From Sphyrna mokarran (Eukaryota), in NCBI GenBank assembly GCA_024679065.1, contig JAGIQG010000009.1, forward strand, positions 99,262,001-99,326,000: 64,000 nt of DNA, given 5' to 3'. A program made the position numbers and the translations under genes. This document shows positions 9,863 to 56,874 of the stretch, piece by piece; positions within the stretch are counted from its first letter, which is position 1; the number at the start of each line of letters is the position of its first letter. A model generated the notes under the pieces. It was given only the letters and a program-made list of their open reading frames with translations. It did not search any database and was not told the origin of the DNA.

Positions 9863-9883
9863 CTTTACACTTCGGGTCAATTC
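9863..9883 (-). CDS. 21-nt microexon, GIDPKCK
   Basis: tttttttgcctgttttattag|GAATTGACCCGAAGTGTAAAG|gtaaat. Confidence 0.77.
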
Positions 9884-10439
9884 CTAATAAAACAGGCAAA
9901 AAAAAAAGCAGATCAAACACTTTCTGTGAAATTTACTGCACATAAGTTATATGAAGTGATCGAATCGTCAGTCCAGACTGAAAAGTAGAAAGGGAAAGCA
10001 AAAAAGCGGGTACCTGGAGCGGCATACAGACAATCTCAACTGCAATGGATGCTTCCAGACTGAAATTACCCACTTCATGGGAAAGGTGCTTGTGTGTATC
10101 GTTGATGTAAGGGGGTGGGGTCGCTGGAGGGGAGAGGGTATTTTACCTATTGTATTGCAGAAAAAATGTCAAAATACATAGATAAAAGCAGAGGCTCTAA
10201 TCTTATATATTTTGTTTGAATTCAGGGATTTTTTTTTCGGAACAGCTTTTCTCAGGGTCGGCTAGGATCTGGAACAGCATATGAATTGCACATTCCGAAG
10301 TATATTTCAAGGACATTTTTAACATTGGGCAATGGTTGAATTACTTTTTCGATGTCAAAAAGCAACAAGGCACTAAAGTCTGATCCCGAGGTTGTTATGG
10401 CAGTGTTGTGTGGTGTCATGGTCGCTGTTCCTTAAAGAC

Positions 10440-10930
10440 TGGCTAGTTCCATGTCAACAATTGTCTGTTTGAAGTTGTGTGGTTATTTGAAGGCAAGAAG
10501 TAGAGCTGTGGGGATGACCTTGGCGAGATGTTCGTCTTCATCAATGACACGTTGAAGGCTCCAGAGAAAATGTCGTAGCTCCTCTGCTCCGGGGAATTAC
10601 TGGACAATGGAGGGTATACTCTGTCTGCCATTTCCCATGTTGTCTTCTGAGGAGGTCGGTGTGGTTTTTCACTGTGGTGCATTGGAACTGTGGACCGATC
10701 AGTCGACTACCATATCCTGTTCTTACGAGGGCATGTTTCAGCATCTGGAAGTGTCTGTTGCAATCCTCCTATCTGAGCATTGTGAACACGACTTGCACTC
10801 ACCTGATGTAGGAGCAGCACTCCGAAAGCTTGTAGCTTGTGCTACTAAATAAACGTGTTGGACTTTAACCTGGTGTTGTGAGACTTCTTACTGTGCTTAC
10901 CCCAGTCCAGCGCCGCATCTCCACATCATG
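10440..10930. mobile_element. Penelope fragment with internal inversion (coding piece on -, 3' terminus on +)
   Basis: ~10440-10775 is the reverse complement of the family sequence at ~4250-4530; ~10780-10930 matches the terminus at 5140-5288. Confidence 0.8.
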
Positions 10931-11152
10931 CCAATTATTACTGACAAGGAACTCAAGTGGAAATTCATGGAAATTCCATTCTAGTCCCTAGGTCGAGTTG
11001 GCATTTATTCAGGACCTCCTTTTCTATCTGTAGGGTAACGAATAATGCATACAGAATATAAAGTTGCATTAACACTTCCACATCACTTAAGGCAGCGGCA
11101 AGTGCAAACTTAAAGTCTTAAGAATATATTTGAGAAAATAATTTCGTCGTAC

Positions 11153-11176
11153 CTGCCTTAACTTTCTTCTTCAGGT
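11153..11176 (-). CDS. 24-nt microexon, DLKKKVKA
   Basis: cgtttatttgcag|ACCTGAAGAAGAAAGTTAAGGCAG|gtacga; stops in phases 0 and 2. Confidence 0.77.
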
Positions 11177-11455
11177 CTGCAAATAAACGTATTACATTAG
11201 ACTAATAACGTCCTTTATTAGAGTTTCAATGAAATAATGGTACGTGACTAAGCACAATGTTCTAAGGCAAATTGTTGCGATTCAACACTGTCTTTTTCCC
11301 TACGGAATCATTTTTTTCTATTAGCTGCAACAGAAAACCGGGACAAAAATCTACCACAGGTTGTAGATTCCGTATATTAAATCACTGTATGTTATTAATA
11401 TATCTATCTAATCTGCAGTAAATCGCAACCGTTTGTTAGGGACGAGAGATATCAG

Positions 11456-11486
11456 TGAGAGAGAGAGAGAGAATGAGAGAGAAGGA
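11456..11486. repeat. (GA)n microsatellite
   Basis: gagagagagagagagaatgagagagaaggaga. Confidence 0.7.
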
Positions 11487-12849
11487 GATGGGTAAATCCC
11501 GAGGCAACCACTCCTTATCAAGCATTGACAGAAGGCAAGCAAAAAGCTCACAAGCTTGAATCATCGTGGGTGGCATTTATTTTCACCAGTCTAGCCAACT
11601 GAGGTGATTGTTAACAAATAGTAGCACACTAACTACCTTGACAACAAAACCCTATATCACATTTTGGAGCGTTGCATCCGTTAAATTAAGAATATTGGTA
11701 ACGATGAGAAGACAGTTACGATAAGGAAAAATCATAAAATGTACTGACGTTAACATCTAACCATATATCGATATATCAGACATAGACTATTGTTCATTGT
11801 AATGGCAGACAATGTTAACTCGTCTCTTGATATTGTTCTGAATCACTACACTATACCTCTCTGGGAGGACGTTGCTTATATTGCTTAACAGATGCCTCTA
11901 TCACAGGTAGTCATATGTTGGGAGATCCCATATGCAATTATTTTTCACATTGAAATGCAGTGGCTTCGTCGTTTTAAACCATTGAAGGGTTTAATTTGTC
12001 ACATCTCAGTGATAACAAGTTTCTTCTTCTTTAGTATATTCATGGTTTCCTGTTGCAGTTAATAGAGACAAAAACGTCGGCATAAACACAGAACGTTGAC
12101 TTTCAATCTTTGGTGTTCCAATATTGCCACGTTAGGAACACTGAACCCATACTACATAGACATCAACGGACAGAAGTTGAATATTTCTTATCTTGTGTCA
12201 CAAGAGACATAGGCAGCGTGGCTTAAAAGTCAGTGAACGCACTTCTGGCAATATCTACTCCAGCTCCAACGACTACACAGAATGACTAGCGTGAAATCAT
12301 TAGTTGGAGAATCCTTATATTTAACTTTTTAAGAATCAATGATCTAACTCTGCCTTACAAGCAATGCAACTATGATAAAATTAAATTGTCCGTACCTTGC
12401 TCACACAAAGTCGCAATGTTTACCGCTTTGCCCTTCTAACCTCTACAGTCACTCGGGTCAATAAGTTTAAGAAACTCATCTCAGACAACAAAAATCGACA
12501 TTACTGTACATTTGGCGCTACTCTGATGCCCCAATTCCATTCATAAAATAAAATACCAATATCTGAATTGGCAGACACAGAGCAGGAGCATCTTCATCTT
12601 CATCTTCGAAATTTAATATTCCTCAAATCTCTAGAAAGTGATATTCAGTCTGCACGTTTATGTTCGCGAAAAGCTTAAGCAGCAGAAGGTTGTACAAACA
12701 AATTTGCTGATGCATTAAAGTTTGTCATGCAGAATGTTCCATAGAAACTAAATAAACTATTGCTTTGATTGAGATTTTGCCTTGGCGTTATATGATTTGA
12801 ACGCAGCCTCATAAGATTACAATGTTTACGCTGCCTAATTCCAACTGAC

Positions 12850-12873
12850 CGTTCAGTGTTTTGAGTGTTTCAG
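12850..12873 (-). CDS. 24-nt microexon, AETLKTLN
   Basis: tgtcttctgtctcacag|CTGAAACACTCAAAACACTGAACG|gtcagt. Confidence 0.75.
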
Positions 12874-13556
12874 CTGTGAGACAGAAGACATAGATCATCA
12901 ACAAATACGAAAAATATTTTTGCAACTGAAAATAAAGGAATTAGTTTAATTATGATTACATTCAATTAGTTACTTATCGTCCTTTAATTATAAATATTCA
13001 AATTCTTGAATGATGATGCTGCAATTTGCCTACTGTTCATATTGAACCTAATATAACATATTAACAGTTGTTGTTTCCATGTTTTGCATAATAAACCCAT
13101 ATCATTGTTTTCAACATTATTTCAGATCTAACTTTACATTAAATCATAGCCAATATCCAGTTTGTATGCTTTTGTGACAGCCATAATCTATGCGAGAAAA
13201 ACTCCTTTTTCACGGTTGGAAGCTTTGCTGACAGGGTCAGCATTATTATCTTTCCCTAATTGCCGTTGAGACAGTCCTGACGATCTGCTTTAAAAAGAAT
13301 TAGTTAATTATTAAGGAATCATTATAATATGGTAAGCCATGAAGTATTAATAACGGATAAAAAATATAAAGGATTATCTTTATTCGTTAAGTGAAGGTGT
13401 GTGATTTGACGTATAACCATTTGAACGCCAAAGCATTTCCTGCATTTCTGTTTTTAGTTTATTTCCACATTGACTTCCATTCCTTGCGTCGCAATAAATA
13501 TAACTTCCACATATCAAGAAACTGCTTATAACTATGAACATATATTCCTCAATTAC

Positions 13557-13583
13557 CAAGCTTTACTTGCAGTGCGTCTCTCT
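13557..13583 (-). CDS. 27-nt microexon, ERDALQVKL
   Basis: ctttatttcctttcag|AGAGAGACGCACTGCAAGTAAAGCTTG|gtaatt; ends AGCTTG like the 29135 exon. Confidence 0.75.
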
Positions 13584-13954
13584 CTGAAAGGAAATAAAGC
13601 GTACATAACACTCATTACGGGAAGCTTTAATTACGAATGCATCACTGAGTTATTGGAGAATTCTGAGCTCAAAAAGTCAAGGCGGATTTGTAAAGAGCGG
13701 AACGTACCTAACAGCACTATTTGATTTTGTAATGTAATGTCGAGGGATTTAGACATAGCGCCAATAAAGAGGGCAACAGGAAAATGAACATTTACGTAAC
13801 TGTAGGCAGATTTTTCGCATGAAATCTCATTACAGTCAAATTATTACTGATGATCAATAACCATACAGTGTAATGATAGGGAAAAATTTTTCGGAATATA
13901 GATCGAGATAGTAATAATGTAAATAACAAGCAAGAGAAGAATTTAAATAGCATG

Positions 13955-14070
13955 ATCAGGTCAACGGGGAGAACGTGCACACTCCACACAGACAGCAAAC
14001 CAAGGCTGGAATCAAATCCATTTCCTTGGGGCTGTGAGACAATATTGCTCCTCACAGTGCGATCTTGTCA
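13955..14070 (-). mobile_element. SINE 5' fragment
   Basis: acggggagaacgtgcacactccacacagacag matches the other copies. Confidence 0.75.
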
Positions 14071-14339
14071 CTACTATGGGTAAGAATTGGTCAAATAGAT
14101 CAAAGTGTCAGGTAGAAATTTATTACGACATTGCAAACCTCCTGGCGCAGAGTTAAAAGTAAATATGGAAACGACGAGAAATATCAACATTTACTTTGTT
14201 GGAAGGCCAGGTTCAATGGTTTGAGAACAGATCTCTGCTGGATGTGCTGGAATCAAAAACTGACAGGCAAAAATGTAATCCAGTAATATATTGTCTTTAG
14301 AATCAAATGGTTATGGAATGGTTATAGTGCAGAAGGCGC

Positions 14340-15070
14340 AAATATAGGCCAGCCTGTACCTTTTGTTCCTGGGATATAATTTTTTCGATAGGATAATATG
14401 GACCAAATCTCAGTAACTAAGAGAAGTGTGATTTGGTTAATTACGTCAGAATGGATTTATTAAAAGAAAATCGTATCATGCTAACTTGATTGCATTGTCT
14501 AGAAAAATTGCACCTCAAATAATAAAGCGGAGAATGGGGTATGCCTCTGCTATTCGACAGTGAGAGGAAACAGAATGGTGGATCACTATCCATTTTCATA
14601 TTGGAGGAAGCAATGTAGAGGCGTTCTTCAGGAGTTGCTTCCAGGACCACTGCCTGTTTTTTAGTTTTCTCATAAACTTGAGCATGTAGCAAAAAATGTA
14701 AGCACTGCAGGTGATAGAACAGTTGTTTATCTCATGAACTACGGTGTAGGGGGTGATGGTCTTCTACAGGATGCAGGCTTGAAGAAACGTAGAACACCAA
14801 TGCAAAGTCGTTAACTATGTAATCAAAATAGATAGGAGGAAAATCCTTTCTTTATTTTGGATTTTTTAAAAATACGGAATATCTGAAAATATAGCAGAGA
14901 AGGTCTCAATCATCTCCTTCAAAAGTATTTTATCATCACCGAAAGGAGTAAAGTAAAACCCGCAGGACTACATGATAGGGGCTGGGGAGACGGAATTGCT
15001 AAATTGCTCTGGGAGAGAAAGAGCACTAAAATGACAGTTTAAATCATCCACATCTGCATTATAATCACTG
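14340..15070 (+). mobile_element. Highly decayed CR1 RT and 3' end
   Basis: WRKQCRGVLQELLPGPL resembles W..V.SGVPQGSVLGPL; a degenerate SKFADD follows, then a CR1-like tail. Confidence 0.6.
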
Positions 15071-15779
15071 TTGATGAATCTGTGATTCGATATTTATTAA
15101 TAACGACATAATGCAAGGAATATTTCTATTCCCGAGTCTGCAAAAGACACAAAGCTTCGAGGTATATATTGAGTTAAAGGTTACTTTAAAATGTTTGATT
15201 CTAGTCAGTTTTTTAGGGATTAGAATCACACATTTTGAAATGTTGGTCGCAGATCTTTACTTTCTGTACAAACTTCAGATTTCAAGCGAAGTCGCGTGGT
15301 ACAAACCACAAAACGTTTTCGCTGTTCTAGTGTGACAGAGATTCACACCACGTTAGTGCTCCATTTAATTTCAAAAGAGGAGCATTTGAATAAATGAAGA
15401 GGTAAAAATTGCTCCGTTTTAACCAGTGTCTACGCCTTCTTCATTGGAGCCTAACATATAATAATAACGATATTGATACTTAGCGGGTAACTATGGTTCC
15501 TCTTATTCCCAAAAGATAACGCAATTATTCACGCTACTTATGTAACAAGAGCAAACGGTCCATTAAGCATATCAGATATTCTATTGTTCTATAATAAAAA
15601 AATCAACTGATTTCTGCTAAACAATGCACATTTAGTTAGATTGCCGATTGCTGTTTCCACAGAAGACAATGCAAAATAACATTTAGTTCACTTTAGGAAC
15701 GGCGGCAGGTACGACAATTCAACTGATAAATACTGAAAAACACTTGACTTAATAGTCCCATTTAAAGTGACAGGCCATG

Positions 15780-16620
15780 GAAAAGTTAAATGCCTAAAGT
15801 AAGTGGATTTGATTTGCGAGTTGGGGGTATTGGACATCATAGGGTTGGGTGTCGGACATTAGGGGGATTGTTGTGGTGGAAGTTGGTGCTTGGACATCAG
15901 GCAGAGAGACGGACAGCGTCAGCTTCAGCAGACGCTCCCCGTACTTTCCATTTCTTTACTGTACAAAAAAAAGTATTTCCTTGGCTCTGTGAAACAGTCG
16001 TGCTCATCACAGTGCGATCTTGTTGGCCCACCAAACTGGGTATGGAGTCAAAGACTGGTGCATCGGAAATGGGGAATGGATTCGTGTGTACAAATATCAG
16101 GGCGATTGTGTGTTTTACCTCGCGTGTTCAGGCACCGGGACACATCGGATATTAAGGGTTCGGACATCAAACAAGTGAATGGAGGGGTGGCAGATATCTC
16201 GAACTATGTTGTGTTGGACATTGGGAGTGAATGAGGTGTCGAAAATCCTGGGCAGTGGGTTTGTGATAGTGTCTTGCGTCGAGGGCGTAGGGTTTTGGTC
16301 AGTTGGGTGATTGATTGGATTCGTCAAAGGCAATGGAGGCAGTCAGTCGGGACAGAATGTTGAAACGGAGTCCTTCCATGTGTAATTGGGCCAGGTTGGT
16401 TTGGAGATATGCAGTCAGTACAGTTGGGGGTGCGGCGGTGTGATGCGTTCCAGTAGGCACGTGTCCAGTCTCGAGTCAGATCGAGGATGTTTTGGATACA
16501 TTCATTCCGTTGGCGTTCAGGGATGGGGAACACGCTGGGGATGGAAGTTTGGTGTAGGTATGATTCAGAAGCGGCGAGGATGTCAGCTTTGGGATCGAAA
16601 GAGTTGGCTGGCGCTGGTTG
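15780..16620 (-). mobile_element. Decayed LINE endonuclease-like remnant, clade uncertain
   Basis: ADILAASESYL....FPIP and LTNPINHPT....QHNIV resemble APE motifs; strong strand asymmetry. Confidence 0.4.
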
Positions 16621-17017
16621 TTGTGTTAAAAATATTGACACTGAAGTCAGAAGTCGTTTTACATGTTCTAGTTTTTTTTTCAGCTTACATGTTAGCATAG
16701 CAGTGGTAGAACCATGTGAAGCTAGTCGTTTTAATGGCTTTGTTTGACGGTTCCCAGCGCACAACAGTCGTCCAAGTGATGTTGGATTACCTTCGCGTAT
16801 ACTCCTAGTTGTGAATTACCAAAAAAGTTCACTTAGTACATCTTTGGTGTGCCACCCAAAAAATGACACGGGGTGGGGGGTGGGGCGGGTATGGGGGGGA
16901 GGTGGATGTGGATTGGGGGCGGACAGGGAATTACATCATTACATCGTTTCGGCAAGTTTGGAATATGGTCATATTTTGCATTAGAATATCCATTTAGCAT
17001 ATTAGGAACTGACTAAC

Positions 17018-17044
17018 CTTGTGTCACGTCTTCAAGTGAGGTTC
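17018..17044 (-). CDS. 27-nt microexon, GTSLEDVTQ
   Basis: atatttctctcaacag|GAACCTCACTTGAAGACGTGACACAAG|gttagt; stops in phases 0 and 2, so only phase 1 is open. Confidence 0.78.
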
Positions 17045-17839
17045 CTGTTGAGAGAAATATAACGTTGAAAACAAAAATCATGAATTAGTATATTTAACAT
17101 AATGATTGTATTTGCAGGCACAAAATGAGGCACAAATCATTGATTGCAATGAAAGGTTATGGAAAAATGTATGGATAAGTGGTTCGCTGTCTTGCCTGGT
17201 TAACTTGAAGAATTGACATTGACTCAATTTCAGAAATATTTAAACAAGAATAAGAAGTGTTGAATATTCATCACATCAACAGTTTCCGTTAAGAAACTGA
17301 AAACAGTTTCAGCAATTGTTTGCTTTAAATACTAAAATACAACATATTTGTGAGCAACGTAGGAAAAGCGGCGAGCAAATGGGAATACATGCAACTATAA
17401 AGAGAAGTACCGAATCAAAGAGAGTGAATGAATGAGAATTCTCCGTAATACATAGCTGCTAAAATATTTTAAGTTTATTGAAAAAATTGATTATCATCAA
17501 CGCAAAAGACTATTAAAATTGATTGCTTGTGAAAGGAATTGGGGGAAAACACATGCGAGTAATCAAGTGAGAAAATGGGACACATTTGAGAAGAAACACT
17601 TGGAAAAGAGCGGAGAATTACATCTTGGCCGTGATGTGGGTAATGTGTAATACCAGCTGACGAAGCCTGAGTTTTATTGACTTAAACTAAAGGACCCTTG
17701 CGACAGGTGAGACTGCATTTGAATTCTGCTCTCTTTATTTAAGGAGGGATGTGATTAACTTCGGAGAATATTCTATTGATCACTGAAATGGAATTATTTC
17801 ATTCCTAAGAAATAATCCATCCTAGGTGGGATTATTTCA

Positions 17840-18370
17840 TAGAATCACAAAGTCTATAGCGTAGAAGGAGGCTACTTCGCACATCGAGCCTGCACCATCA
17901 ATAATTTCACCTAGGTCCCATCTCTGCACCCCCATATATATTTACCCTTCTAACCCCGTGATACTAAGGGGCAATTTAGCATGGCCAATCGACTGAACCC
18001 GCACATTTTTGGACTGAGGAAGGAAACAGGAACACCTGGAGGAACCCTACTCAGTAAGAGGTCTGACAGCACCAATTTTAAATCCAACCGATTTATTTGT
18101 TAGTAAACTCGCTAGCTTTCGGCGTTTGTGCCTTCGTCACGCGAATGAGGTGTTCATTCACCTGATGAAGGCACAAACGCCGAAAGCTAGCGAGTTTACT
18201 ATCAAATAAATCGGTTGTATTTAAAATTGGTATTTTCAGACCTCTTACTGAGTTTACCCCAGTCCAACGCCGGCATCTCTACATCGGAATCCTACTCAGA
18301 CAGGGAAGGCTGTTCAAATCCCCACAGTTCACCTGAGGCCGGAACAGAGGTTAGCAACAGTGCCGCCCAT
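17840..18370 (-). mobile_element. HE1-like SINE interrupted by a Penelope fold-back, itself inside an old CR1 remnant (~17300-18680, +)
   Basis: SINE core aagggGcaatttagcatggccaatc...ttggactg...ggaaac resumes after 18290; flanks carry CR1-like RGDL.E..KILRG. Confidence 0.75.
18049..18285. mobile_element. Short Penelope terminal insertion forming an inverted repeat with ~100-bp arms and hammerhead-like cores
   Basis: Arms 18049-18148 and 18154-18253 with a 5-nt loop; CTGATGA-aggc-acaaac-gcc-GAAA at 18162; TSD-like ggaaccctactcag (18041-18054) / ggaatcctactcag (18286-18299). Confidence 0.85.
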
Positions 18371-19164
18371 GAGGGAACGCTGGGAAAGTTGTGCAAATAT
18401 CCATTCGTGCTCAGAAATGTTAATGGTGACCTTACTGAAAAGATTCATATTCTGAGAGGAACTGACTGACTCAATGCTGAAAGAAGATTCCCTCTTATGG
18501 GAGAAGCCAAAACTAAGACTCATTGTTCAAAAATAGGAGGTTTTGCATTTAAGGTGAGGATGAGGAAAATTCTCTGTACCTTTCTCTGAGTGTGGAATTG
18601 GCTTCCCTGGACACCATGTAGCCAGCCATTTTGGACGACGGTGGATTAATCCACAATTGTAGATTAACTTCCTGAGCCACATTAAACTCAGTTGGGTGAA
18701 AAATATAACACAGGAGACTTGTATACAGGATTTTATTTGGGCGTCGCTGGTTAGACCAGCGTTTGTTGCCCATCACAAATTTTCTTTGAGAAGGCAGCGT
18801 TGAAATACTTTCTTAAAACTGCAGGCCATATCGTACAGGGCACCCACAATGTAGACAGTAAGGCAATTCTGGGATTTGTACGTAGAGACAGTGAAGGAAA
18901 GGCGATAATATTCCAAGTGAATTCATGTGTACGTTGGGCATATGTTGATGCCAAGTCGTCCGTCCATGTTCTGTTGTAGTAATTTGATGTGTTCAGTTGA
19001 TTGGGGTAACAGTCAAACTCATTGCTCTGCTCCTGGGAGTCACAAATAGGGCACATCGGACCTAGTTGGATGGCATATTTCCTTCCTTGAATTTTGTTAC
19101 TGGGACTTTAGAGCAACCGATAATTGTTTCTAAAGTTTTTCAAGCTAATTTATTCGTATAGAAA

Positions 19165-19425
19165 GTAAGCTTATAGTAACGTTGCAATGAAGATACTTTG
19201 AAAATCCCCTAGCTGTCGTGCTCTTTTGGGTACACTAAAAGAGAATGTAGCCCGGCCAATGCATTTATCCAGCACGTTTTTCGAGCTGTGGAAGGAAACT
19301 GGAGCACTTGAAGAATCCTACACAGACATGGGAAGAACTTGCAGGCTCCATGACTTAAACGAGGAATTGTACCCGGGCCTCTCGTTCTGTGAGGCAGCAG
19401 TGCTAACCAATGAGCCACCATGCCA
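19165..19425 (-). mobile_element. HE1-like SINE
   Basis: Same core and head (tgtgaggcagcagtgctaaccaatgagccacc). Confidence 0.88.
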
Positions 19426-19717
19426 TCAAAGTAATGCCGCCAGTTCCACTAGGATTATTAATTCAATTCAAATTCCACTGTACAATTTGCACGTGTTTTC
19501 CTCAATATTATTTCCAATATTACTATTCCGGTGACATTATCATACGCCCCCGCCTCCCCTTATTCTCTGAGCCCGGAATTGTGATTTTAACGCAATTAAA
19601 ATGGTTAAATAGAATATTGCAAGTATATTGCATAATACTCCAATCATATACCGCTACTTTCAGCCAAATGCCAGAATTTGAATACATGAGCCAAGGAACA
19701 TGTTTTCATCTTCTTAC

Positions 19718-19741
19718 CAGGAGCCTTTTCTCCTGTTGGTG
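19718..19741 (-). CDS. 24-nt microexon, TPTGEKAP
   Basis: ctgtatttctctgcag|CACCAACAGGAGAAAAGGCTCCTG|gtaaga. Confidence 0.8.
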
Positions 19742-19954
19742 CTGCAGAGAAATACAGGTAAAATTTTTAAAGTTACATTTTTAGGAGACCCGGAACTAAC
19801 TGAATAGCACAAATTCCACCCACTGGCATTGATTTGTATATAAAAAAGACTGATGGCGTTTGGTAGTCTTTCATTTATGCGACGTAATGACAGTGGATGA
19901 ATTTATTACAGCGTATTTCATCATGGCAGATTAATTTTAAAGTTACCTATCAGT

Positions 19955-20230
19955 CACTAATCGGCTTATATCCATACTGCAATGAAATTACTGTGAAAGT
20001 TCTCTAGTCGCTCCACTTCGGCGCCCGTTCGCGTATACTGAAGCAGAATTTCGCATGGCCTAACCAGTACATGTTTGAACTGTGGAAAGAAACCAGAGCA
20101 CACGGAGGAAACTCACGCAGAAAAGGGGAGAATGCACAAATTCCACACAGACAGTGATCCAAGCCGGGAATTGAAGCAGTGGCTTTGGCGCAGTGAGGCA
20201 GCAGTGCTAACCATTGTGCCACTGTGCCGG
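19955..20230 (-). mobile_element. HE1-like SINE inserted in duplication copy A
   Basis: SINE tail gcaatgaaattactgtgaaa and head cagtgaggcagcagtgctaaccattgtgccactgtgcc. Confidence 0.88.
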
Positions 20231-20627: not shown

Positions 20628-20644
20628 TATCAGCTCTGTTGTGG
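20628..20644 (-). pseudogene. 17-nt frameshifting exon-like unit, duplicate of the 19718-19741 exon
   Basis: cccttttctttgcag|CCACAACAGAGCTGATA|gtatgt at the homologous position in the tandem duplicate; length not a multiple of 3. Confidence 0.5.
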
Positions 20645-23290: not shown

Positions 23291-23339
23291 ACTAAAAGAG
23301 AAACACTAGAAATTGGTAGGTAGTTGGTTGAAAGTAGAG

Positions 23340-46699: not shown

Positions 46700-46960
46700 C
46701 ACAGCAGGCAGATGACAGATTGCAAATGTGACACTTGCGTGTTGGTGGATGCCAATATGATCCATAGCAATCACATTTGCAGCAATTTGTCATCAGCTTG
46801 AGGAACGTCAATTCAGGCTTGATGAACTGTAGTCTGAACTTCAGACACTGCAGAGGAAGCAAGTATTTAGGAAGGCAAGTTAGAACGTGGGATTTGTCGC
46901 AAGGAGCTAGAGTATACTAGTAGCAAAGTATTGCGACAGTTTTACAGAAGATGATCCTGA
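46700..46960 (+). mobile_element. CR1 ORF1 zinc-finger/coiled-coil remnant
   Basis: CDTC..., HICS..C.QLEE....LDEL.SELQTL. Confidence 0.5.
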
Positions 46961-48389
46961 ATAGTAGGAGAATGTGCTGAATTGATGAGAACATCGTCAC
47001 ACAGCCCAAGAATCAATAATTTGCTATGATAAATTCAGTGTTCTTCAACGATTTCCGAAGCAAATTTGAAGAGTGAACTCCACGTCCTCTAATCAATTCT
47101 TCCTGAACTTTTAATCAGGCGCTTTCATGCCATTATACTGAGATTTATTGCTAGAAGGACATTTATGCATGAATGGAATATTCTTCAGGTAAGTGTTCCG
47201 AAGGTGACAATGGTTCAAATATTGATATTATCAAGTTTGGATAATAAAATGTTATCCATTGCAGAATTCCTCCGTACGAATGAAACTCACAGGGACGCAG
47301 TTAGAGCTACAATGAGTGGCATTGTTATATAGTGGTTTGAAGAGGTGGAAACATTAACTGTTGGTTGATGCAATTTTTAACAATTGATTTATGGGACTGG
47401 CTGGCAAGGATTTATTGCCCGTCCTTAGTTGTCCTTGAGAAAATAGCGGTGAGCTGCCTTCTTGAATCGTTGCAGCACACATGTGTGGGTTGACTCACAA
47501 TACCAATAGAGAGGGGATTCCAGAATTTTGAACAGTGTTCCACTGAACACTGTTTGATGGAACTGTGTTACACTTCCAAGTCAGGAAGGTGAGTGGCTTG
47601 GAGGGGAACTTGCAGGTATTGGTGTTCCCATGTATCTGCTACCTTTGCCTTTCTAGATCGACATGGTTGTGAGTTTAGAAGGTGTTGTGTAAGGATTTTT
47701 GGTAAATTGCTGCAATGCATCTTCTAGTTAGTATACTCTGTTGCTAATGAGCGTCGGTAGAGGAGAGATTGAACGTTTGTAGATATGGTGCCAATCAAAC
47801 GGGCTGCTTGTCCTGTATGCTGTTAAGTGTTGTTCATATGCTAAAGTAAAATGGTTAGACGTACGAATGGGTCAGACTATTTGGTGACTAGCTGGCAAAT
47901 GGAGGGAAGTGCACTGTTTTCCTGCCCATCTGATTATATTTGCAGCTGTCAATAAATAGAAAAATCTCTTGCTGTGGAAGAATGGGCACCAGTTGCACTG
48001 CAACCCAATTTCCACAGCGATACGAACGAGAAACAAAATGAAAAATGTGAATTAGGTCAGGGCATGACATAATGTACCCAATGTCAATATTACAGGCATA
48101 ACCGAAATGTAGCAAAATTCTCTTGAAACCATTTTAGTATTATTTGATGTCCATAAGCTCCTCGATAACACTGTACTTTTCATTTCTAAGCAAAACGAAT
48201 CATGTATGACAACGACATAAACAAATGCCATAAATATAAATAATGAAAACAAACTTGTGGATGTACGTAGTTCATTATTTTCTGTGGATTAAAATAAACA
48301 TTAATTAGATGCATGATATCAAACCGAAATCTAAATCAGGAATCAAACACAAAGATTTGCAATAGATTTGAAATTTTTGAACTCCTCAC

Positions 48390-48416
48390 CAGCTTTCAGT
48401 TCGGCAATTATCTCAT
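48390..48416 (-). CDS. 27-nt microexon, NEIIAELKA
   Basis: ttttatttctgtgtcag|ATGAGATAATTGCCGAACTGAAAGCTG|gtgagg. Confidence 0.78.
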
Positions 48417-48634
48417 CTGACACAGAAATAAAACCATTGGCAATGAGTAGCAATCCTTCACATCTCAGAATAACAATTGAACGAAAATCACAAATTAATA
48501 TTTTTTTTGCACTGGGCCTTTTCAAGTAAAAAATCTTGGACGACAGCGATTCTTCATTTCATTCCCCAGAGCAATTATTTGAAAAATCATAGTCAACTCT
48601 TGGTTTGAATTTTACCCGAAACTGCGTCTTAAGT

Positions 48635-48800
48635 ATTCCCTTGGACAATCCCCATGGCAAAGCCTCGACCAATCAGAGTTAGCTGGCTAATCAACTCATA
48701 TCATACATTATAATTATCTCAGAGATACTGGCAATTTTATCCTGATGAGTACAATTTGAAAAGCTTTATCAGCTTGTCTTCCTTTCAGCAATTCTCAATA
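48635..48800 (+). mobile_element. Short Penelope-type terminus with a hammerhead-like core
   Basis: cctgatgagtacaatttgaaaagct at ~48741-48765. Confidence 0.45.
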
Positions 48801-48850
48801 TCAATGTTTTAAGCAGGATATTCATTGACAAGTTGTTAACTTGCAACTAC

Positions 48851-48865
48851 TTGGGGCACCAGTAG
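48851..48865 (-). CDS. 15-nt microexon, TTGAP
   Basis: gattttcttgtttcag|CTACTGGTGCCCCAA|gtagtt; donor moderate. Confidence 0.55.
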
Positions 48866-48992
48866 CTGAAACAAGAAAATCAGACATCATTGGACCTTTG
48901 GAGGTTGAAATCAAGCAGATGTATGATTCTTTTGACGTGTACAATGGAAACCGTGACCTAGCAGCTGAGAACTGCGTCCATGAAGGTCATAC

Positions 48993-49007
48993 TATCGCTC
49001 GAAATTC
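48993..49007 (-). CDS. 15-nt microexon, GISSD
   Basis: ccgcttgtttcag|GAATTTCGAGCGATA|gtatga. Confidence 0.6.
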
Positions 49008-50395
49008 CTGAAACAAGCGGACTTTGAGTAGTGGTAAATACCTTTTTCCACTACATCACAAAGCTTCATAGTGTTATGATTAAAAATATGTTTGGCGAAA
49101 TGTATTTTCCACATCAAACTAAAAACGTGGAAGTGGATGTAAAATGTATGGGTGGAAGAAAATGTGGAACAGTTTTCCTTATGAGTGTCTCTGTAGTTTT
49201 AGACATGCATGAGCAATAGTGAATGTTTCAGGATCAGTTGCTGCAAGGACCATTCTCTCAACCTGCCCTATATTTTCCACCCTTTTATCAATTTGTCATA
49301 TTGTCAATCGGCATTGAACTGATGGGATGTCGGCTCCTACAATACAATCTCTGCAGCTCCTGTACATTTTCCAGCATCATCAAGCACAAAATGGCATCAA
49401 GCAAGCATCCATTGTAATAGATGGAAGAAAAGATGGCCCCATTGAAACAATCACTTTGCACCAAAATCAAATGTTTCATACTTTATATTGGTCTGTGAAT
49501 CCACATGCCGAACGAATCGATTTTTTCTTAAAGGCTCCAACCATGGATTTCATTTGGTTGTTTATTTCTACTATATTGCTTCTAAATTGGTGCAAAATTA
49601 ATCTAACACGTGGACAGAAACAATTTCCTTGCAGTGTTTTGTCAATGTAAGCATCTTCGAAATATTCCCTCAGCGAGGAAAACTCATCGAGTTTCACTTT
49701 CTTAAAACGTATTTCTATAGCGCCAGCATAATTCACTTCAGAATTCGAAAACATTCATTGTTGCTCGTTATTAAAATTGCTGGATGGAATTTTAATTTAT
49801 ACACGATGTTACACAGAAAATCATGGACTGCATAAGGGATGCACTCTCAACGAAATAAATTCAGTTTTCAAATCCGTTATACATAACATGCAAGAACCTT
49901 GGATGGCTTGAATATTGAATTTTCCTGTTGTTATAAAAAAATCTGGTTTGGAACATTTATTTTGCTCCATATTCTGATGCCATTTTCCACTTACTAATGT
50001 CCAATTAACGGATTTATCTTACTGCATTCAGGTTATTGGGAAAATTGTATGAATATTTAGAATGGAAAATTAGTTTACGAATGAGCACAATTTTATAAGC
50101 AATTTCACTGTTCTGTTTATTTGTTCTGCTAAGTTCACTTATAGATGTTTCTACGTTTTTAATCAATTCTGGTATTACGTGTTAACCAAACGAATTGATT
50201 GTTTATGTAAACTTACTGCTACTTCGTAGTAGGCAATACTCACTGTCGGATTTGCACTTCGCATCCAGCTCTAAAGTTAAAGATGCAAAAATTTGAATTG
50301 GAATATTGTTCATGTAAAACCATTCAATCACGTACTGAACGTTTCGAAAGGAACAGCATCTATGTAATGGAAGAATATTTTGACAGCACATGTAC

Positions 50396-50422
50396 CTTTC
50401 TCCTTTCGACTCAGAAGTGTTT
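50396..50422 (-). CDS. 27-nt microexon, ETLLSRKEK
   Basis: tctgcgtttattacag|AAACACTTCTGAGTCGAAAGGAGAAAG|gtacat. Confidence 0.72.
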
Positions 50423-50619
50423 CTGTAATAAACGCAGACACATTTCTATTTAAGACATATGATAAAATGTGTTTACTTCCACATCGTCCAGATGATGTGG
50501 AGTTCAGATGCAAAGCCGCATTATGACGAATCATATTTAATAGAAAAATAAATTGTTTATAATGACTGAGTTGATATTGTTCCACAATATGCAAAGTGCG
50601 GCACAATAGTTCTACTCCT

Positions 50620-50848
50620 GCCTGTGTGGAGTTTGCACGTTCTCCTCTCGTCTGTGTGGGTTTCCTCCGGGTGCTCCGGTTTCCTCCAACAGTCCAAAGA
50701 TGTACTGGTTAAATGCATTAGCCATGCTAAATTCTCCCTCAGTGTGCCCGAACAGCCGCTGGTGTTTGGCAACTAGCTGATTTTCACAGTAATTTCATCG
50801 CAAAATGATGTAAGTCTACTTGTGACAATAACAAAATAAACTTTAACT
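50620..50848 (+). mobile_element. HE1-like SINE
   Basis: tgtgtggagtttgcacgttctcc...gtgggtttcctccgggtgctccggtttcctcc. Confidence 0.9.
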
Positions 50849-52029
50849 GGCTAATAGACGGAAGTTAAACTCATTGCTTCGAAACACCATGTTCTGATTT
50901 TTTTTGAGGCCCCTTTGCGTATAACGTGGCAGAAAGTACGTCAGTTTCGAAAATTAAGTTCTGCATTTGGACTTTCAATAGTCACTAACCAAAATAATCT
51001 CCGAGTGTTGAGAATAATCTCAACAGTGTGAAAGTCATGCGATCTTCGTGGAGCTCTTCATATTTTATGAGGCAGAATCAACTATTAGACCATTGGACGC
51101 CATGAAAATATTGTCAAAATTTCATCTTTGCACGTACTGCGTAAGTAAACTCAGACATTACTGAAAATGAAGCATGTCGCCGAATGTTACCACCTTTCAT
51201 TAAGGCCTATCTAAGGAAGCCAAATGTGATACGATGAAAGAAGTTCATCTCATACGAGAAAAAGCATTGATTGTCAAGTGGGCTCTGCTTTGCCGGCCGT
51301 CAAATCTGAGCTGAAAATATTTGGTTTGCCGCTGATATCTTTGGATGGCGGTGTGTGTTGTGGGGAGACGGGAAGGAGGGGGGCAGTGATAAGGGGGGAC
51401 GTCGGAAGGAAATAGAACAATCATTTAGACAAGCTGTTTCACATTTCTACCACGCATTTTTTTACTCAGTGATATTGCCCATTAGCAGGATGCGCCCATC
51501 AGTCCAAAACGATATTTTTGAGCAGTATGCTGCACAACCTACAGTTCCAATGTGGATCCGGGTAACTAGGCATAGGCTACACAAAATGCTGAGTGCAAGG
51601 TGCAGAGTGCAGGCTCCACTCATCCAACACGTCCTTGCATACGCAAAATACAGTATCTATTCTTGCATATTCTTGCAATTCACCAGCACTTGCGGAAAAA
51701 AAATATTCTATGTACACTCATTGTTTCACTAACAACCTGAACAGATTCATTTGTTACCCCGGGCATTTTTTTGTTAAGAATACATTATTCTTAATGTTTT
51801 GCAGTCACCTGTTTTTTGAAGAATTCTGCTTAACTCCTTTAGTTCTGGAATGGACATTGATATGGTTTGAGTTGACAAACATGATCAATTTCTATCTGTT
51901 GAAAAGATGTATTACCAGTCTTGTCACTCACATGGAATTTCTGAAGTTAATGTTTTTGTTTGGCCAGCATTTATTTTGCCATTCTTACCTTGAGAATCCA
52001 GAAAAGAAATGTGTCCAAGTCGCTTGGTC

Positions 52030-52560
52030 ATAAAGGCGTAGGTAAGAAGTTTGTTAACAATAGAGAGATGGGTTATTGAGCATGTATTCCATTGTGTAGA
52101 AATATAGTTGGTGATCGTTCGTCCTATCAGGCCTCTTGGCCGTCGGTGGGTGGAGAAGGCGGGTGAGAGGAAGGCAGTTTGCCAGAAGTTTGTTGCTAGG
52201 AGGGAGGCGCTGTAGAGAATCGGGGTGGAGAAAACCAGGCGGAATGGGGTGTGTTGGTGAGGGACGGCGGTGGATATTATTTTTCGCTGGTTTGGTCTGT
52301 CCTATTGTGCATGTGGAGGGCTGGAGGGATTGGTCAAAGGGAGAGTTGCCAAGGCCCCTGCTCGAGTAAATTCGGAAATTGGAGTTCAGTTGAGGTACCT
52401 TGGATAATTGCCGAGTTACAGCTGGTGTCATTCAATGTGCCACCACCTGTGTAAAAATCTGTCACGTCTCGTAATTTTGTCAACGCCGTGTGTTCTTCAG
52501 TCTCTCCAGGGAGTCCTGGAAGGATTTCTAGCAATCCGTTTACTGTAAGGATTGGGACAA
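52030..52560 (-). mobile_element. Decayed LINE RT C-terminal-like remnant, clade uncertain
   Basis: GC-richer, strand-asymmetric block; KNNIHRR....IPPGFLH resembles LINE RT C-termini. Confidence 0.3.
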
Positions 52561-52969
52561 TTACTCACATTATACCCGGTTTATAAAAGAATAATTGCAT
52601 CAGTATCTGTTTGCCCAGATATCCTGTGTCATACACTAATACAATTATTTTAAATTGGAACAATGTTAGAGCTGATGCACCACGGTGGGGAAAGGGAGGC
52701 GCTCGTCTGAGCTTCAACCCACACATTTCGTATTCACTTTTGCTCTGCGAACTTTGAAAAGGGTCTACGACCTGGACGAGCCGGAGAAGCATTAGGATGT
52801 GTTTTTAACAAATCGCTCAGAATAACCCTTACAGAGCAAGAAAGATTTAATGCCCAAACGTGTTAGAATATTTAAGATAAAGGTTTAACTACATACCGAT
52901 GACAGAATCGGACGGCAAACAAGGATTGAATTAAAAGATAGGTCTTTTTTTAAAAATCCAGCGATAGAA

Positions 52970-53320
52970 ACTCAGCATTTTTGGCAAGGCCAAAATTTGT
53001 TGCTGATTCGTATCTGTCACTGAATTTATTAACTACTAGGCCATTTTAGAGGGCAGTCAGAAGTACTGTGAGTCTGGAATCACATACAGGACAGAGAAGG
53101 ACGACAAATTTTCTTCCCCAAGAGGCATCAATGGAATAGACAAGTCTGTACAACAATAGATTATAATTTCGTGGCCATGATTACTCAGCCTAGATTTCAA
53201 TTCCAGATTTTAATTATTTGGTAATTGCAGTGGTGGGGCTTGAAGTCATGCCCCCTGGGCATTAAGTTGTCTGTCTGGGTGATTAACACAGCGACATCGC
53301 CACTACACCATTACCTTCCC
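52970..53320 (-). mobile_element. tRNA-type SINE sharing its 3' tail with the LINE family at 30300
   Basis: ggccattttagagggcag...gagtctggaatcacata...; related + copy split at ~59400-59500 and ~60000-60160. Confidence 0.55.
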
Positions 53321-54219
53321 AAAATCAGAACAAAGTAAAAGTTCAACTTATCTTTAATATCTGCTGAATAGGCGTCCAGTCACATGAACATGAATTACTA
53401 GTGCCAGAACAGGTCAGATATTTTTCCTATGTACTGTGGTTTTTCAGGACGTTAGTGTGATAGCTATAGTTGATGGATACATGCTAATTTATACTGCACT
53501 TTTTTGTGTCCATCTTGTTTGTAAGAGGTATAACTTATATTTAAGCCTGTTGAAGATGGAACAAATAACGTTAGCTTCTTGGTTTCCATACTCAAAGGCA
53601 CCTTTCGTGATTCAGGTTTCTGTGTCAAAGCAACCCAAAAAGCCATACCCTCACTACAGCCTTGCAACATAAACTGTTCCGAATTCAGTATTTTGTACTG
53701 TAGCAAAAAAAAAACAACAGCAGTAATTGTCTCAGGTTGTTGGTACTACAGGAAATAGAGACGTTTGATTTTTGCAATAAAAGCGCACCATAGCTAAACA
53801 GAAGGTAAATATTTCCTTAAGTTAACAAAAGCATTTGGTGAGATACATTTACTTTCCAAACGGATACTTCATGAATACCTAAAGCTACACGAATGGATCT
53901 AGGCCAGCAGTTTTATAGTCGTTAATCGAAAAACTATGAGCAAACGATCCCTGTTTAAAGATTGCTCTGCAATAACCTAGTGCCTCTGCTATGGCCATAA
54001 CATTAAATTAGTACGTAGTAGAATATTTTTCACACAGCAGCCATATTTACCACACTATGGGTTTTCACATACAGACAGTGATTCTAAATTTGACTACTTT
54101 TTTCATCCAAACTTATCTTAGTACTTAATATCTGCTCCTCTAGTATGTTTTCTCTCCCTCCACAAATTCTGTGCGCCACTATATTCCTCTATGATATTGA
54201 CTCCTGGCTCTCATAATCT

Positions 54220-54335
54220 TGTAAGAAGTCTCACAACACGAGGTTAAAGTCCAACAGGTTTATTTGGTAGCAAAAACCACCGAAACCTAATGTGAGACTT
54301 TTAACTGTGTTTACCCCAGGCATCTGCACATCATC
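54220..54335. mobile_element. Very short Penelope terminal insertion with inversion
   Basis: gtaagaagtctcacaacacgaggttaaagtccaacaggtttatttgg (-) joined to tgtgagactt...accccag.catctgcacatca (+). Confidence 0.75.
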
Positions 54336-55150
54336 TCAGAATGCTGCCCAGTTAGTTGAAAATCTCGCAAAGAATTTTAACAAATCTACCCAGAAATTAA
54401 CCAATCCTGACTCCGGATAGTTTCAACCCATGACGTGATCCAGGTTCTCGCTGCCGTTGGCCTTTGCTGCACTACAATAATTAATTTGGAATGATTTTCG
54501 TGCAAGACTGGTTGTCTGGATATCGCTTCTCTGTGGGTTACTTTGATGTAGATATCTTTATTATAACGCTACCTTTGCATATGGAAACCAAAAGGCTAAT
54601 ATGGTTTGCTCCATTCTTCAATGGGCTTAAATGCAACTTATGTCATCGTCATTCTATAGTCAAAAGCAATCAACTAAACATGATTTCATTTTCTATGAAT
54701 AACAATGATTCCGATGGAGTCACAATTATGAAATCCGTTTGTTTAGGATCGAGAGAACCATTTGTCAAAACCGTCACAAATAATAGCGTGATTAAGCACC
54801 CGTTTAATCTTAAATGCACATGTTATGAAGGAAGCCATTCAGTCGTCCAACTTTAAACTTTTTGATTTCGGTGCCTGTTTATTGGAAAGGATGCAGCGGA
54901 GGATCGTGTGGAGAAACAAGCTATGTCTGACCACAACTGATTCTTTTGTGGATGGCAGCAATTGTTGAAGAAGTCATATTGAACTCGAAATTTCAGCATT
55001 GTTTTTCTCATCGCAGCTGCTGTCATGTCTGCGGAATATCTCCAGTACTTTTACATCCAGAATTTGCTGTTATATTTGCTCTGTAATAATTTCAATTCTG
55101 AGAGGTTCACAGCTTTGTTTTAAATAAAAAAAAACGAAGAAGATTCCTAC

Positions 55151-55177
55151 CAAATTCTTTCGATTGCAATTCTAATT
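55151..55177 (-). CDS. 27-nt microexon, KLELQSKEF
   Basis: ggcttttatttcag|AATTAGAATTGCAATCGAAAGAATTTG|gtagga. Confidence 0.72.
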
Positions 55178-56213
55178 CTGAAATAAAAGCCGGCAAGAAT
55201 ATTCATTAGTTATTTTTAAATCTGATGAATCATCATTTGCACCCCGCATTCTAATTGATGTATTTATTTATTTCCTCTGCATTGCATCGAATTTCTACTT
55301 TCTTAGTGTTAATGCAAAAGAATGTCAATTCAATTTGTATCTTCTATGTTGCCAAAAGCATTGTGCTACTCGTAAAGGAATTCCGTCATTACATGTTTTA
55401 TTTTTTCCTCGAGTTGTTGCATTAATTTCTCTCTATTCCATTGAGATTAATCTAACGAACAGCCAATGGAAGTCAACGCCGATTTGTTTTGAAGAAACGT
55501 TTCCATTTCTAGATCAAAATATAAGCAATACATAATAGGTAACGGTCGTTCAGTCATCTACTGAGATTAACACTTGAATGCCTTACAGATATATTAAGTG
55601 AAAAATGGTTAATTTTTAAACTGAAACACTGGAGAGTTATTTGTCTCTCTGCTTTTCAGAAGCTGAAACGTTAGATAAGTTTTGCATCTTCAATTAGGAA
55701 ACAGTCTTTTAAAATCTCAAACGAAGCTAAAATGCTAACAGAACATGTCTTTGAAAATAGGAATACTTATATTGGACCACTAAAAATGGGAGAAACGTAT
55801 CCTGCCGGAACTAAGTTTCTAAGATGATCTTTAATGTTCTGATGTGATTTGCTTGCTCCCTGTGCAGATTGCAAAACGTATGTTCGCCTTCAACATTGTA
55901 CTTAGTAAAACACATGCATCGTTTCAACACAAAAATAATTCTGTCCAGAGTGATGAGGTTAAATAAATATCAGACAATCAGTGGAGAATTGCTGAAGTTG
56001 CGAAACTCGACTGATGCTTTCTCCGTTTGGAGAAAATGTCATGAAAACCAGACACAGTCCTGGACTATTTGCATTAAACCTACTCCAAGATAATTGAAGC
56101 TTCCAATATCGCAGTACAGGTTTCACAAACATCCCACCAAATGTGTTAACAGATGTCTTCGTTATAAATCCATCACAGTTTATGCAGTGCCAAACGGTTT
56201 GTAAAGATAAACC

Positions 56214-56361
56214 NNNNNNNNNNNNNNNNNNNNNNNNNNNNNNNNNNNNNNNNNNNNNNNNNNNNNNNNNNNNNNNNNNNNNNNNNNNNNNNNNNNNNNN
56301 NNNNNNNNNNNNNNNNNNNNNNNNNNNNNNNNNNNNNNNNNNNNNNNNNNNNNNNNNNNNN
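56214..56361. other. Assembly gap (148 N)
   Basis: Run of n. Confidence 1.
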
Positions 56362-56827
56362 GCGTGCTTCGCATAAAACTTAAAATAGTAGAGAGAAAAA
56401 AAAACAAAAAAAAAACATAGAACATAGCGGAGAGGAAAAGTTACTTTTTCTACCATTGGGAACCATGTTAACATTGCAGACATATACTGATTCATTGTAT
56501 AAACCAATTACTTGAACAGCTAATAAGGAAAATAATTTAAAAATAATTTTTTAAAAAAGATATTATGGTCAATGAACTAAAGAAATATCGCATTAATATG
56601 AAGACGAGGAACAACAATATTCGATGCAAAGGGAACAAAATGAAATGGGAGGATGGACGCAGCATGAAACCTTAACAATAAAGATGGAAGGAATTGCATA
56701 CAAAAGCTAAAAAGCTGTATCAAATTTTGATATATTCTATGGAATCCAATGGTTTCATAAAAAGAAATTGGTGTTACTTGAAACGAAACGATTTGAAGAC
56801 ACACAACGTATTTGCACTTTTACATAC

Positions 56828-56854
56828 TTGCATCTCTCATGGCTTTCTGGTATT
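56828..56854 (-). CDS. 27-nt microexon, (E)YQKAMRDA
   Basis: atttaatttatttcag|AATACCAGAAAGCCATGAGAGATGCAA|gtatgt. Confidence 0.75.
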
Positions 56855-56874
56855 CTGAAATAAATTAAATGTAT

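Follow-up and report, generated by a model that had tools for sequence, protein, structure and literature searches.

We found that the analyzed window, a 64,000-nt stretch of a Sphyrna mokarran contig, lies in the middle of a 367-kb gene (hereafter gene 1) with at least 131 micro-exons, a predicted rod of ~1,250 residues and a B30.2 domain. We think its product is probably a cytoplasmic, dimeric spacer or scaffold whose length could be adjusted by splicing. The exons form an ordered, in-frame chain with a heptad period that ends in a SPRY/B30.2 exon, and the gene sits among tandem paralogs on the MHC-bearing chromosome. We propose that a single transcript would connect the Met and B30.2 exons and that the protein would be cytosolic, a location suggested because no signal, Ig or membrane exon was found. 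The heptads would drive dimerization and place a pair of B30.2 ligand-binding heads as far as ~185 nm from the N-terminus (1250 × 0.15 nm, if the rod is unbroken), and rod length would be tuned through exon skipping.

The minus strand of the window carries 23 phase-1 exons of 15–39 nt each, 612 nt in total, out of about 135 in the gene (Table 1). We scanned both strands for units of 12–45 nt with a splice-site weight matrix, using 100 shuffles as control. Units of 27 nt made up 15 of 79 on the minus strand versus three of 74 on the plus strand (shuffle mean 1.65, maximum 5). The excess of lengths divisible by three that the initial annotation had proposed as a test was also present (minus 45/79, plus 26/74, shuffle maximum 39). 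Among 17 strong 24-, 27- and 36-nt minus-strand units of the window, eight, one and eight contained a stop in phases 0, 1 and 2, respectively; for 111 such units across the whole gene, the counts were 60, 11 and 50. Taken in genomic order, the window exons matched catshark protein in 116 of 205 columns. This order scored 545 against catshark P0001, compared with a mean of 124 and a maximum of 232 for 1000 shuffled orders; the exons were partly picked by P0001 similarity, and it is the comparison between orders that carries the information.

The strand, length and phase statistics, together with the exon order, confirmed the hidden micro-exon gene that the initial annotation had described, and changed its dimensions. 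That account placed ~20 exons of 6–39 nt and a peptide of ~160 aa within positions 9863–56854. We placed 21 of the 23 curated exons there (558 nt, ~186 aa); no 6-nt exon was supported, and the earlier list of lengths had omitted 36 nt. The array continues past that interval, reaching +208 kb at one end and −158 kb at the other (window coordinates), and the scale of the gene had been underestimated about sixfold.

Table 1. Gene 1 exons in the window (positions are those of the window)
Feature	Position	Strand	Remark
Middle 64 kb of gene 1	1..64000	-	whole gene 367 kb
27-nt phase-1 exon	61634..61660	-	gapless with neighbors in P0007; P0001 match; outside 9863–56854
27-nt exon	56828..56854	-	
27-nt exon	55151..55177	-	
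36-nt exon	51809..51844	-	
27-nt exon	50396..50422	-	
27-nt exon	50244..50270	-	8/8 residues same as P0007 and paralog 2
27-nt exon	48390..48416	-	
27-nt exon, weak donor	48255..48281	-	
27-nt exon	43704..43730	-	
36-nt exon, GC donor	42574..42609	-	DNA block common to paralog 2
27-nt exon	37472..37498	-	
15-nt exon, weak sites	34148..34162	-	DNA block 34092–34193 matches paralog-2 15-nt exon region
18-nt exon	29375..29392	-	
27-nt exon	29135..29161	-	8/8 residues same as P0001
24-nt exon	26102..26125	-	
39-nt exon, helix end plus Pro/Thr linker	22252..22290	-	
24-nt Pro/Gly/Thr linker exon	19718..19741	-	
27-nt exon	17018..17044	-	
27-nt exon	13557..13583	-	
24-nt exon	12850..12873	-	
24-nt exon	11153..11176	-	
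21-nt exon, least certain	9863..9883	-	catshark room 15 nt; paralog 2 has a 21-nt unit here
27-nt exon	7792..7818	-	P0001 and paralog 2 match; outside 9863–56854

Three candidate units were rejected as exons: a 6-nt unit at 48860–48865, whose flanking exons abut gaplessly in both catshark proteins, and two strong-looking units that proved to be fragments of a dispersed repeat (20065–20079) and of a LINE (7743–7760). A further unit, at 37344–37370, has a strong acceptor and no ortholog support.

Gene 1 runs along the minus strand of contig C1548 from 99,470,454 (Met exon) to ~99,103,309 (end of the B30.2 exon). Our curated model has 132 exons (the Met exon and at least 131 micro-exons) plus the terminal SPRY/B30.2 exon and encodes 1438 aa, open throughout; each of the 132 exons has an open frame and is bounded by AG and GT/GC. 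Lengths of 27 nt (72) and 36 nt (30) prevail among 131 micro-exons, with only 21 of 21 or 24 nt. A GC donor is used by one further 27-nt exon of the model, a form that leaves no junction stop. The predicted coiled-coil rod lies between a short acidic start and the B30.2 domain, and its hydrophobic period of 3.48–3.53 is heptad-like, bearing out the earlier proposal of a modular coiled-coil gene. Used alone as a query, the rod returned generic coiled-coil matches, and Rfam gave 0 matches. Skipping any exon of gene 1 causes neither a frameshift nor a stop: None of 8646 skip junctions makes a stop, because no exon ends in T. A rule by which 36 + 27 nt make three heptads holds only in part (of 131 adjacent pairs, 49 were 27/36 or 36/27 and 31 were 27/27).

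Some 5' exons are diverged or weak. By inspection, the N-terminus is acidic and non-hydrophobic, with no signal peptide. Two S. canicula models (XP_038671248.1 and XP_038673008.1) begin at the Met of gene 1, and the residues preceding it differ among three paralogs. The Met exon could also be an internal exon, because in all three paralogs a phase-1 acceptor lies 14 nt upstream of it and the frame stays open.

Protein comparison, likewise suggested at the outset, recovered orthologs or paralogs that follow the exon chain colinearly in four elasmobranch genera: S. canicula (XP_038671249.1, XP_038671248.1, XP_038673008.1), S. torazame (XP_072329362.1, XP_072329363.1), Narcine (XP_069775413-428), Leucoraja (XP_055520637.1) and Chiloscyllium (XP_043533989.1, GCC31347.1). 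Identity to gene 1 was 58% over 942 columns for XP_038671249.1 and 59% over 684 columns for XP_072329363.1. A third homolog search yielded no protein other than P0001; P0018 and P0020 were rejected as homologs, being unrelated repeat proteins. Each RefSeq or GenBank model covers only part of the gene under a generic name (A33-like, CENP-E-like, golgin-like, EEA1-like, trichohyalin-like or butyrophilin-like), and no single database protein reaches from Met to B30.2. The expectation that annotation would miss the gene was thus half right: The orthologs are split and misnamed, but RefSeq does hold them. These RefSeq models of other species suggest that the gene may be transcribed. In-frame gaps of 8, 8, 11, 12 and 23 aa distinguish eight RefSeq isoforms in Narcine; the gaps of single-exon size break the heptad register, and obligate pairwise skipping of 36- and 27-nt exons is unsupported by them. 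The family appears so far only in sharks and rays, consistent with the lineage-specific origin first proposed, and we found no description of it in the literature.

Inspection of the flanks located the B30.2 exon 158 kb beyond the window start, with a phase-1 acceptor and a SPRY match (PF00622, 32.5 bits, cutoff 26.3). The best solved-structure matches were BTN3A1/3A3; with the bamboo-shark domain as query, BTN3A1 scored 79.9 bits versus 68.2 for TRIM21. In a tree without a confirmed shark BTN row, the family's B30.2 formed a clade (100/99) separate from 20 other genomic B30.2 exons. No 27-nt exon shared before B30.2 in TRIM/BTN genes was detected above the threshold used at 20 loci, and a single-sequence fold of the domain was unusable (pLDDT 36.8). 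An in-frame TGA, where catshark has Arg, removes the last 21 residues of the gene 1 B30.2. This tail carries a near-invariant Pro and aligns within the solved BTN3A1 B30.2 construct. The TGA 21 codons before the end probably cripples the head. The X1 contig, possibly the source DNA itself, carries the TGA as well; X2 contigs, presumed to be RNA, cover intronic places too and miss the TGA, and an X4 contig spans its position. Together with the diverged or weak 5' exons, the TGA would also suit an early stage of decay in gene 1.

The rod and the B30.2 have fared differently among the paralogs. In paralog 2, the rod has 0 stops in 79 mapped exons and the B30.2 exon has ~7 frameshifts and two stops. 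We saw no B30.2 exon belonging to paralogs 3 and 4, and a decayed one stands between copy 2 and copy 1. The domain is intact in the catshark ortholog and in a paralog at C1548:101.418 Mb. Between paralogs 1 and 2, dN/dS was 0.375 (0.28–0.51) across 58 exon pairs, an average over all time since duplication; both these pairs and the exons of paralog 2 were selected on similarity, 3n length and AG/GT ends, a choice that favors intact exons. All 49 MHC_I matches (49/49) lie on the contig of gene 1 at 85.8–95.8 Mb, the nearest 3.3 Mb from the end of the gene.

None of 80 ORFs taken from the regions upstream of the three Met exons (at least 80–85 aa, holding Cys and Trp, without LINE motifs, cut at locus ends) belonged to an Ig, RING or B-box family. 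An Ig regular expression, run without a positive control, fired nowhere in 1.66 Mb; the ortholog models held no Ig domain; and a genome-wide V-set search placed none near the locus among the best 150 of 1261 candidates, which by itself does not prove absence. The search for a transmembrane exon upstream of paralogs 1 and 2 gave two phase-1-ending hydrophobic candidates, both overlapping repeats (a LINE and a dinucleotide repeat). A RING pattern, which fired upstream of six of 20 other B30.2 exons, matched once in 1.66 Mb, downstream of gene 1, and Pfam found none.

We give a modest chance, well below even, to gene 1 being a recently inactivated copy whose exons were once functional and which is now silent or dispensable. 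The TGA, seen also in X1 (maybe the source DNA), the state of the 5' exons and the wrecked B30.2 of paralog 2 would all suit such a history. Against it stand the uniformly open and well-bounded curated exons and the rod of paralog 2, which has outlived its B30.2; moreover, a stop in the last exon is not expected to trigger nonsense-mediated decay. We regard as unlikely a reading in which the array forms the cytoplasmic tail of a membrane BG/butyrophilin-like receptor, or belongs to one giant read-through transcript across the tandem copies, and in which the Ig and membrane exons lie farther upstream than the scans reached. The Met exon is itself symmetric phase-1, the best solved-structure matches of the B30.2 are BTN3A1/3A3, two paralogs seem to lack their own B30.2 and the locus is MHC-linked; but the 80 upstream ORFs hold no Ig family, both hydrophobic candidates coincide with repeats, two catshark models begin at the gene 1 Met, and copies 1 and 2 have the decayed B30.2 exon between them. 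The earlier idea of a BG/BTN-like tail survives as a description of the design but not as a true receptor, for which no Ig or transmembrane exon was found.

Slightly less probable still is a division into at least two shorter genes: one, for the rod alone, would stop shortly before the window is reached, and the next would begin close to the window edge. RefSeq does divide both the S. canicula and the S. torazame sequence into two models, but the split points differ between the species, P0007 passes gapless through exons +65019, +64390, 61660 and 56854, and the starting Met of P0001 is Ile in both paralogs of this genome. Chance splice-like motifs have next to no probability as an explanation: Some strong-looking window units are indeed repeat fragments, but the strand, length and phase statistics, the exon-order test, the open 1438-aa model and dN/dS all argue otherwise, and the colinear orthologs in four genera refute it.

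Gene 1, as a predicted cytosolic rod with a terminal B30.2, resembles a butyrophilin or BG tail minus the membrane part and is a member of neither family. Like the cytoplasmic part of BTN3A1/BTN3A3, it has a heptad region followed by a B30.2 exon. Butyrophilins have Ig-V, Ig-C, a membrane helix and just a few heptads, whereas the gene 1 rod has ~1,250 aa and no Ig or membrane exon was found. Schistosome MEG-type, secreted and lectin-neck proteins have a signal peptide or a lectin domain; we saw no signal or lectin exon, and the chain ends in B30.2, contrary to the lectin-neck, secreted or MEG-like protein initially considered. With TRIMs, gene 1 has in common the coiled coil plus B30.2, and B30.2 TRIM clusters are dense on its contig; no RING or B-box was found, and the coil of a TRIM is encoded by two or three large exons, of 96 and 234 bp in finTRIMs (PMC2657112).

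Chicken BG genes are an MHC-linked tandem family that was overlooked by automatic annotation and has a long heptad tail built from many tiny exons; a soluble tail form, the "zipper protein," regulates actin-myosin, and the genes have an Ig-V and a membrane domain, lack a B30.2 and contain 13–36 exons measuring 21 or 24 nt (PMC4046983, PMC8813856). Gene 1 is alike in being MHC-linked, tandem, made of tiny heptad exons and missed by automatic annotation, and unlike in its at least 131 micro-exons of mostly 27/36 nt, its terminal B30.2 and the fact that no Ig or membrane exon was found. The BG trait of having no B30.2 fails for gene 1, in which the domain is truncated; in paralogs 2–4 it is decayed or absent. 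Since the gene 1 head is probably crippled, the rod is likely the part still selected, like the zipper protein.

More tentatively, and with less than even confidence, we suggest that sharks and rays possess an undescribed MHC-linked family of cytosolic rulers. At least 130 freely skippable 9- and 12-residue exons would yield rods of cell-specific length and composition, and the ancestral B30.2 sensor would be disappearing copy by copy with the rod kept, in parallel to the bird BG-tail design. Current annotation misses or fragments this 367-kb gene, which is built almost entirely of 27- and 36-nt exons and accompanied by several tandem sisters close to the shark MHC. Its coiled coil plus B30.2, with no Ig, membrane or RING part, would be a third design beside butyrophilins and TRIMs and bears on the origin of BG and BTN tails. 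The gene offers a natural test of how vertebrates splice more than 100 consecutive micro-exons and whether skipping sets rod length, and the repeated B30.2 loss with the rod kept provides a second lineage for testing tail purpose, a BG question too. Chordate clusters of the Atlas that combine a long coiled coil with PRY/SPRY (1277, 1579 and 1802 aa) are leads only.

The window spans C1548:99,262,001–99,326,000, and its micro-exon gene (gene 1, minus strand) is real. Its array runs on into both flanks and ends downstream in an exon that scores as SPRY (32.5 bits against a cutoff of 26.3); the initial annotation had suggested inspecting the flanks for a B30.2 exon. Searching with this terminal exon returned a bamboo-shark model and the 945-aa Scyliorhinus canicula protein XP_038671249.1 (P0001), in which a coiled coil is combined with SPRY; P0001 in turn led to models from the catshark S. 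torazame and the ray Narcine. A search of the full protein library with the S. torazame model (P0007) gave six matches, four from sharks and rays and two to unrelated repeat proteins. Mapped on P0007 and P0001, AG...GT units formed a colinear chain, with most neighbors exactly one split codon apart. The curated gene 1 comprises a 132-nt Met exon, 131 micro-exons (72 of 27 nt, 30 of 36 nt, 15 of 24 nt, six of 21 nt, and eight others), and the terminal exon, with three GC donors and a median intron of ∼2 kb. It is open over 1438 aa, with 58% identity to P0001 across 942 columns; three further exons are probable in addition. Separately, a RING-finger ORF lies 86 kb downstream of its end.

The minus-strand, phase-1 units described in the initial annotation held up when units were scored on both strands. 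In a splice-site scan of the window, 27-nt units made up 15/79 on the minus strand versus 3/74 on the plus strand, and none of 100 shuffles gave more than five; in a control of 138 kb outside gene 1 there was no strand bias (7/251 minus, 10/272 plus). Stops in the 17 strong window units of 24, 27, or 36 nt numbered eight in phase 0, one in phase 1, and eight in phase 2. The window holds 23 exons (612 nt), 21 of them inside the originally marked range (9863–56854); the units listed there were real, apart from an unsupported 6-nt unit, and two 36-nt exons had been overlooked. The Pro/Gly/Thr linkers claimed earlier are likewise present in the window's stretch of the rod. Aligned to P0001, the window exons match at 116/205 columns (score 545 vs. 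≤232 for shuffled exon orders). Two other strong-looking splice units proved to be repeats, and one open unit without ortholog support is a possible alternative exon. A plus-strand bin outside gene 1, in which 9/28 units are 24, 27, or 36 nt long, may be a repeat or another small-exon gene.

Features on contigs C1548 (JAGIQG010000009.1) and C668 of the Sphyrna mokarran assembly (G000); L-numbers denote genomic pieces
Feature	Location	Strand	Remark
Gene 1 Met exon	C1548:99,470,454; L025:4323-4454	minus	
Gene 1 terminal exon	C1548:99,103,835	minus	Phase-1 acceptor
LINE reverse-transcriptase fragments in introns	Window 7474-7863, 26692-26938, 29610-29838, 36278-36451, 40662-41408, 56868-58018, 62358-62717		
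Possible alternative exon	Window 37326-37370	minus	Open units of 27 or 45 nt with a strong acceptor, 102 nt beyond exon 37472-37498
Paralog 2	C1548:99.847 to 99.503 Mb	minus	
Paralog 2 B30.2 exon	C1548:99,503,382-99,502,851 (L029/L028)	minus	
Paralog 3	C1548:99.90-100.48 Mb	minus	L088-L180 with fourth array
Near-repeated units, paralog 3	C1548:100.098-100.152 Mb		
Fourth array, 3' part	C1548:100.54-100.63 Mb	minus	Within L088-L180
Array with open B30.2 exon	C1548:101.418 Mb; L101-L108 (101.41-101.49 Mb)		27-nt units: 9 sense, 1 antisense
Array with open B30.2 exon	C668:13.716 Mb; L109-L114 (13.67-13.72 Mb)		27-nt units: 7 sense, 1 antisense
B30.2 exons in gene 1 clade	C668:11.88 and 11.93 Mb (L115-L120)		Few short upstream exon candidates
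RING-finger ORF	C1548:99,017,526	minus	
Plus-strand unit bin, 20 kb	Window coordinate -260 kb (L042-L044)	plus	
V-set exon cluster	C1548:81.1-81.8 Mb		MHC contig

RefSeq divides the gene 1 ortholog in both catsharks, at differing places. On sequence grounds we read the array as one gene, because P0007 continues gap-free into the window from the exons immediately upstream, and because the Met that starts P0001 is Ile in both S. mokarran paralogs; a shorter isoform may also exist. The first mapped exon, at the 5' end, contains the Met with which two S. canicula models, XP_038671248.1 and XP_038673008.1, start. This exon has three copies (99.470, 99.847, and 100.480 Mb). In every copy an acceptor precedes the ATG by 14 nt and a donor follows it by 118 nt; the third copy's acceptor is weak. 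Since the Met exon is symmetric, a further coding exon may lie upstream. Ig, RING, and B-box families were absent from 80 ORFs upstream of the three copies, a set restricted to ORFs that contained Cys and Trp and were free of LINE motifs, and membrane-like candidates able to join in frame overlapped repeats. The Met exon encodes an acidic tyrosine motif, DEYxNI, conserved in all three paralogs and catshark, which we take to resemble an SH2-binding site.

The rod is rich in Lys (15.6%), Glu (14.7%), and Leu (14.0%), with a hydrophobic period of 3.5. Hydrophobic residues occupy positions 1, 4, and 8 of 36-nt exons and position 3 of 27-nt exons, so that a 36+27 pair yields three heptads; such pairs account for 49/131 adjacencies and 27/27 pairs for 31/131. 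Because no exon ends in T, none of 8646 possible exon-skip junctions creates a stop. In-frame gaps of 8, 8, 11, 12, and 23 aa distinguish eight isoform models from Narcine; such gaps would fit single-exon skipping and are at odds with obligate paired skipping.

The B30.2 domains of the gene 1 family form one clade (support 100/99), separate from 20 other B30.2 exons, in a tree whose clade members were picked by similarity and which has no confirmed BTN row. For 58 similarity-selected exon pairs of paralogs 1 and 2, dN/dS is 0.375 (0.28–0.51). No B30.2 exon was detected at the loci of paralog 3 or the fourth array; paralog 3 contains a run of near-repeated, Arg/Asp/Met-rich 27-nt units. In the C668 array with an open B30.2 exon, 36-nt and 27-nt units alternate.

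Two heads are damaged. In gene 1, a TGA at the position of a catshark Arg removes 21 residues; the X1 contig, which may be the assembly's source, has the same TGA. The gene 1 head is probably unstable, since a near-invariant Pro is lost and the missing tail aligns inside the solved BTN3A1 domain. The paralog 2 B30.2 exon carries ∼7 frameshifts and two stops in ∼525 nt. At this lesion rate ∼40% of 29-nt exons would be expected to be hit, yet the paralog 2 rod has no stop in 79 mapped exons (2262 nt; gene 1 has 89 in the shared span). The rod thus seems to have been under selection even after its head died, although frameshifted exons are invisible to mapping, which weakens the argument.

By analogy, the gene 1 product likely acts like a BTN/BG cytoplasmic tail, yet it falls outside BTN and BG, as no Ig or membrane exon was found, and outside TRIM, as no RING or B-box turned up (family definitions from PMC8813856 and PMC2657112). 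No prior paper describing a micro-exon coiled-coil/B30.2 family was found in the literature covered, which takes in few subscription papers. The words "butyrophilin," "BTN," and "SPRY" are absent from the main text of PMC10751288, whose supplementary gene tables may list the models. We propose that a presumably cytosolic chain would pair through its heptads into a dimer, a jointed rod whose length could reach ∼185 nm and which, in intact members, would carry B30.2 heads at its distal end that bind a putative ligand. Skipping of symmetric exons, if it occurs in S. mokarran, would alter length and surface while keeping frame. Headless copies might act via the rod alone, by analogy with the soluble BG tail known in chicken as zipper protein, which is described in PMC4046983 as acting on actin–myosin.

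All 49 MHC_I matches fall on C1548, at 85.8–95.8 Mb, and PRY matches are dense there at 91.8–112.9 Mb; elasmobranch class Ib genes are mapped solely to the MHC, according to PMC10751288. On the same contig, V-set exons form a cluster, with more than 20 among the matches listed (best 150 of 1261).
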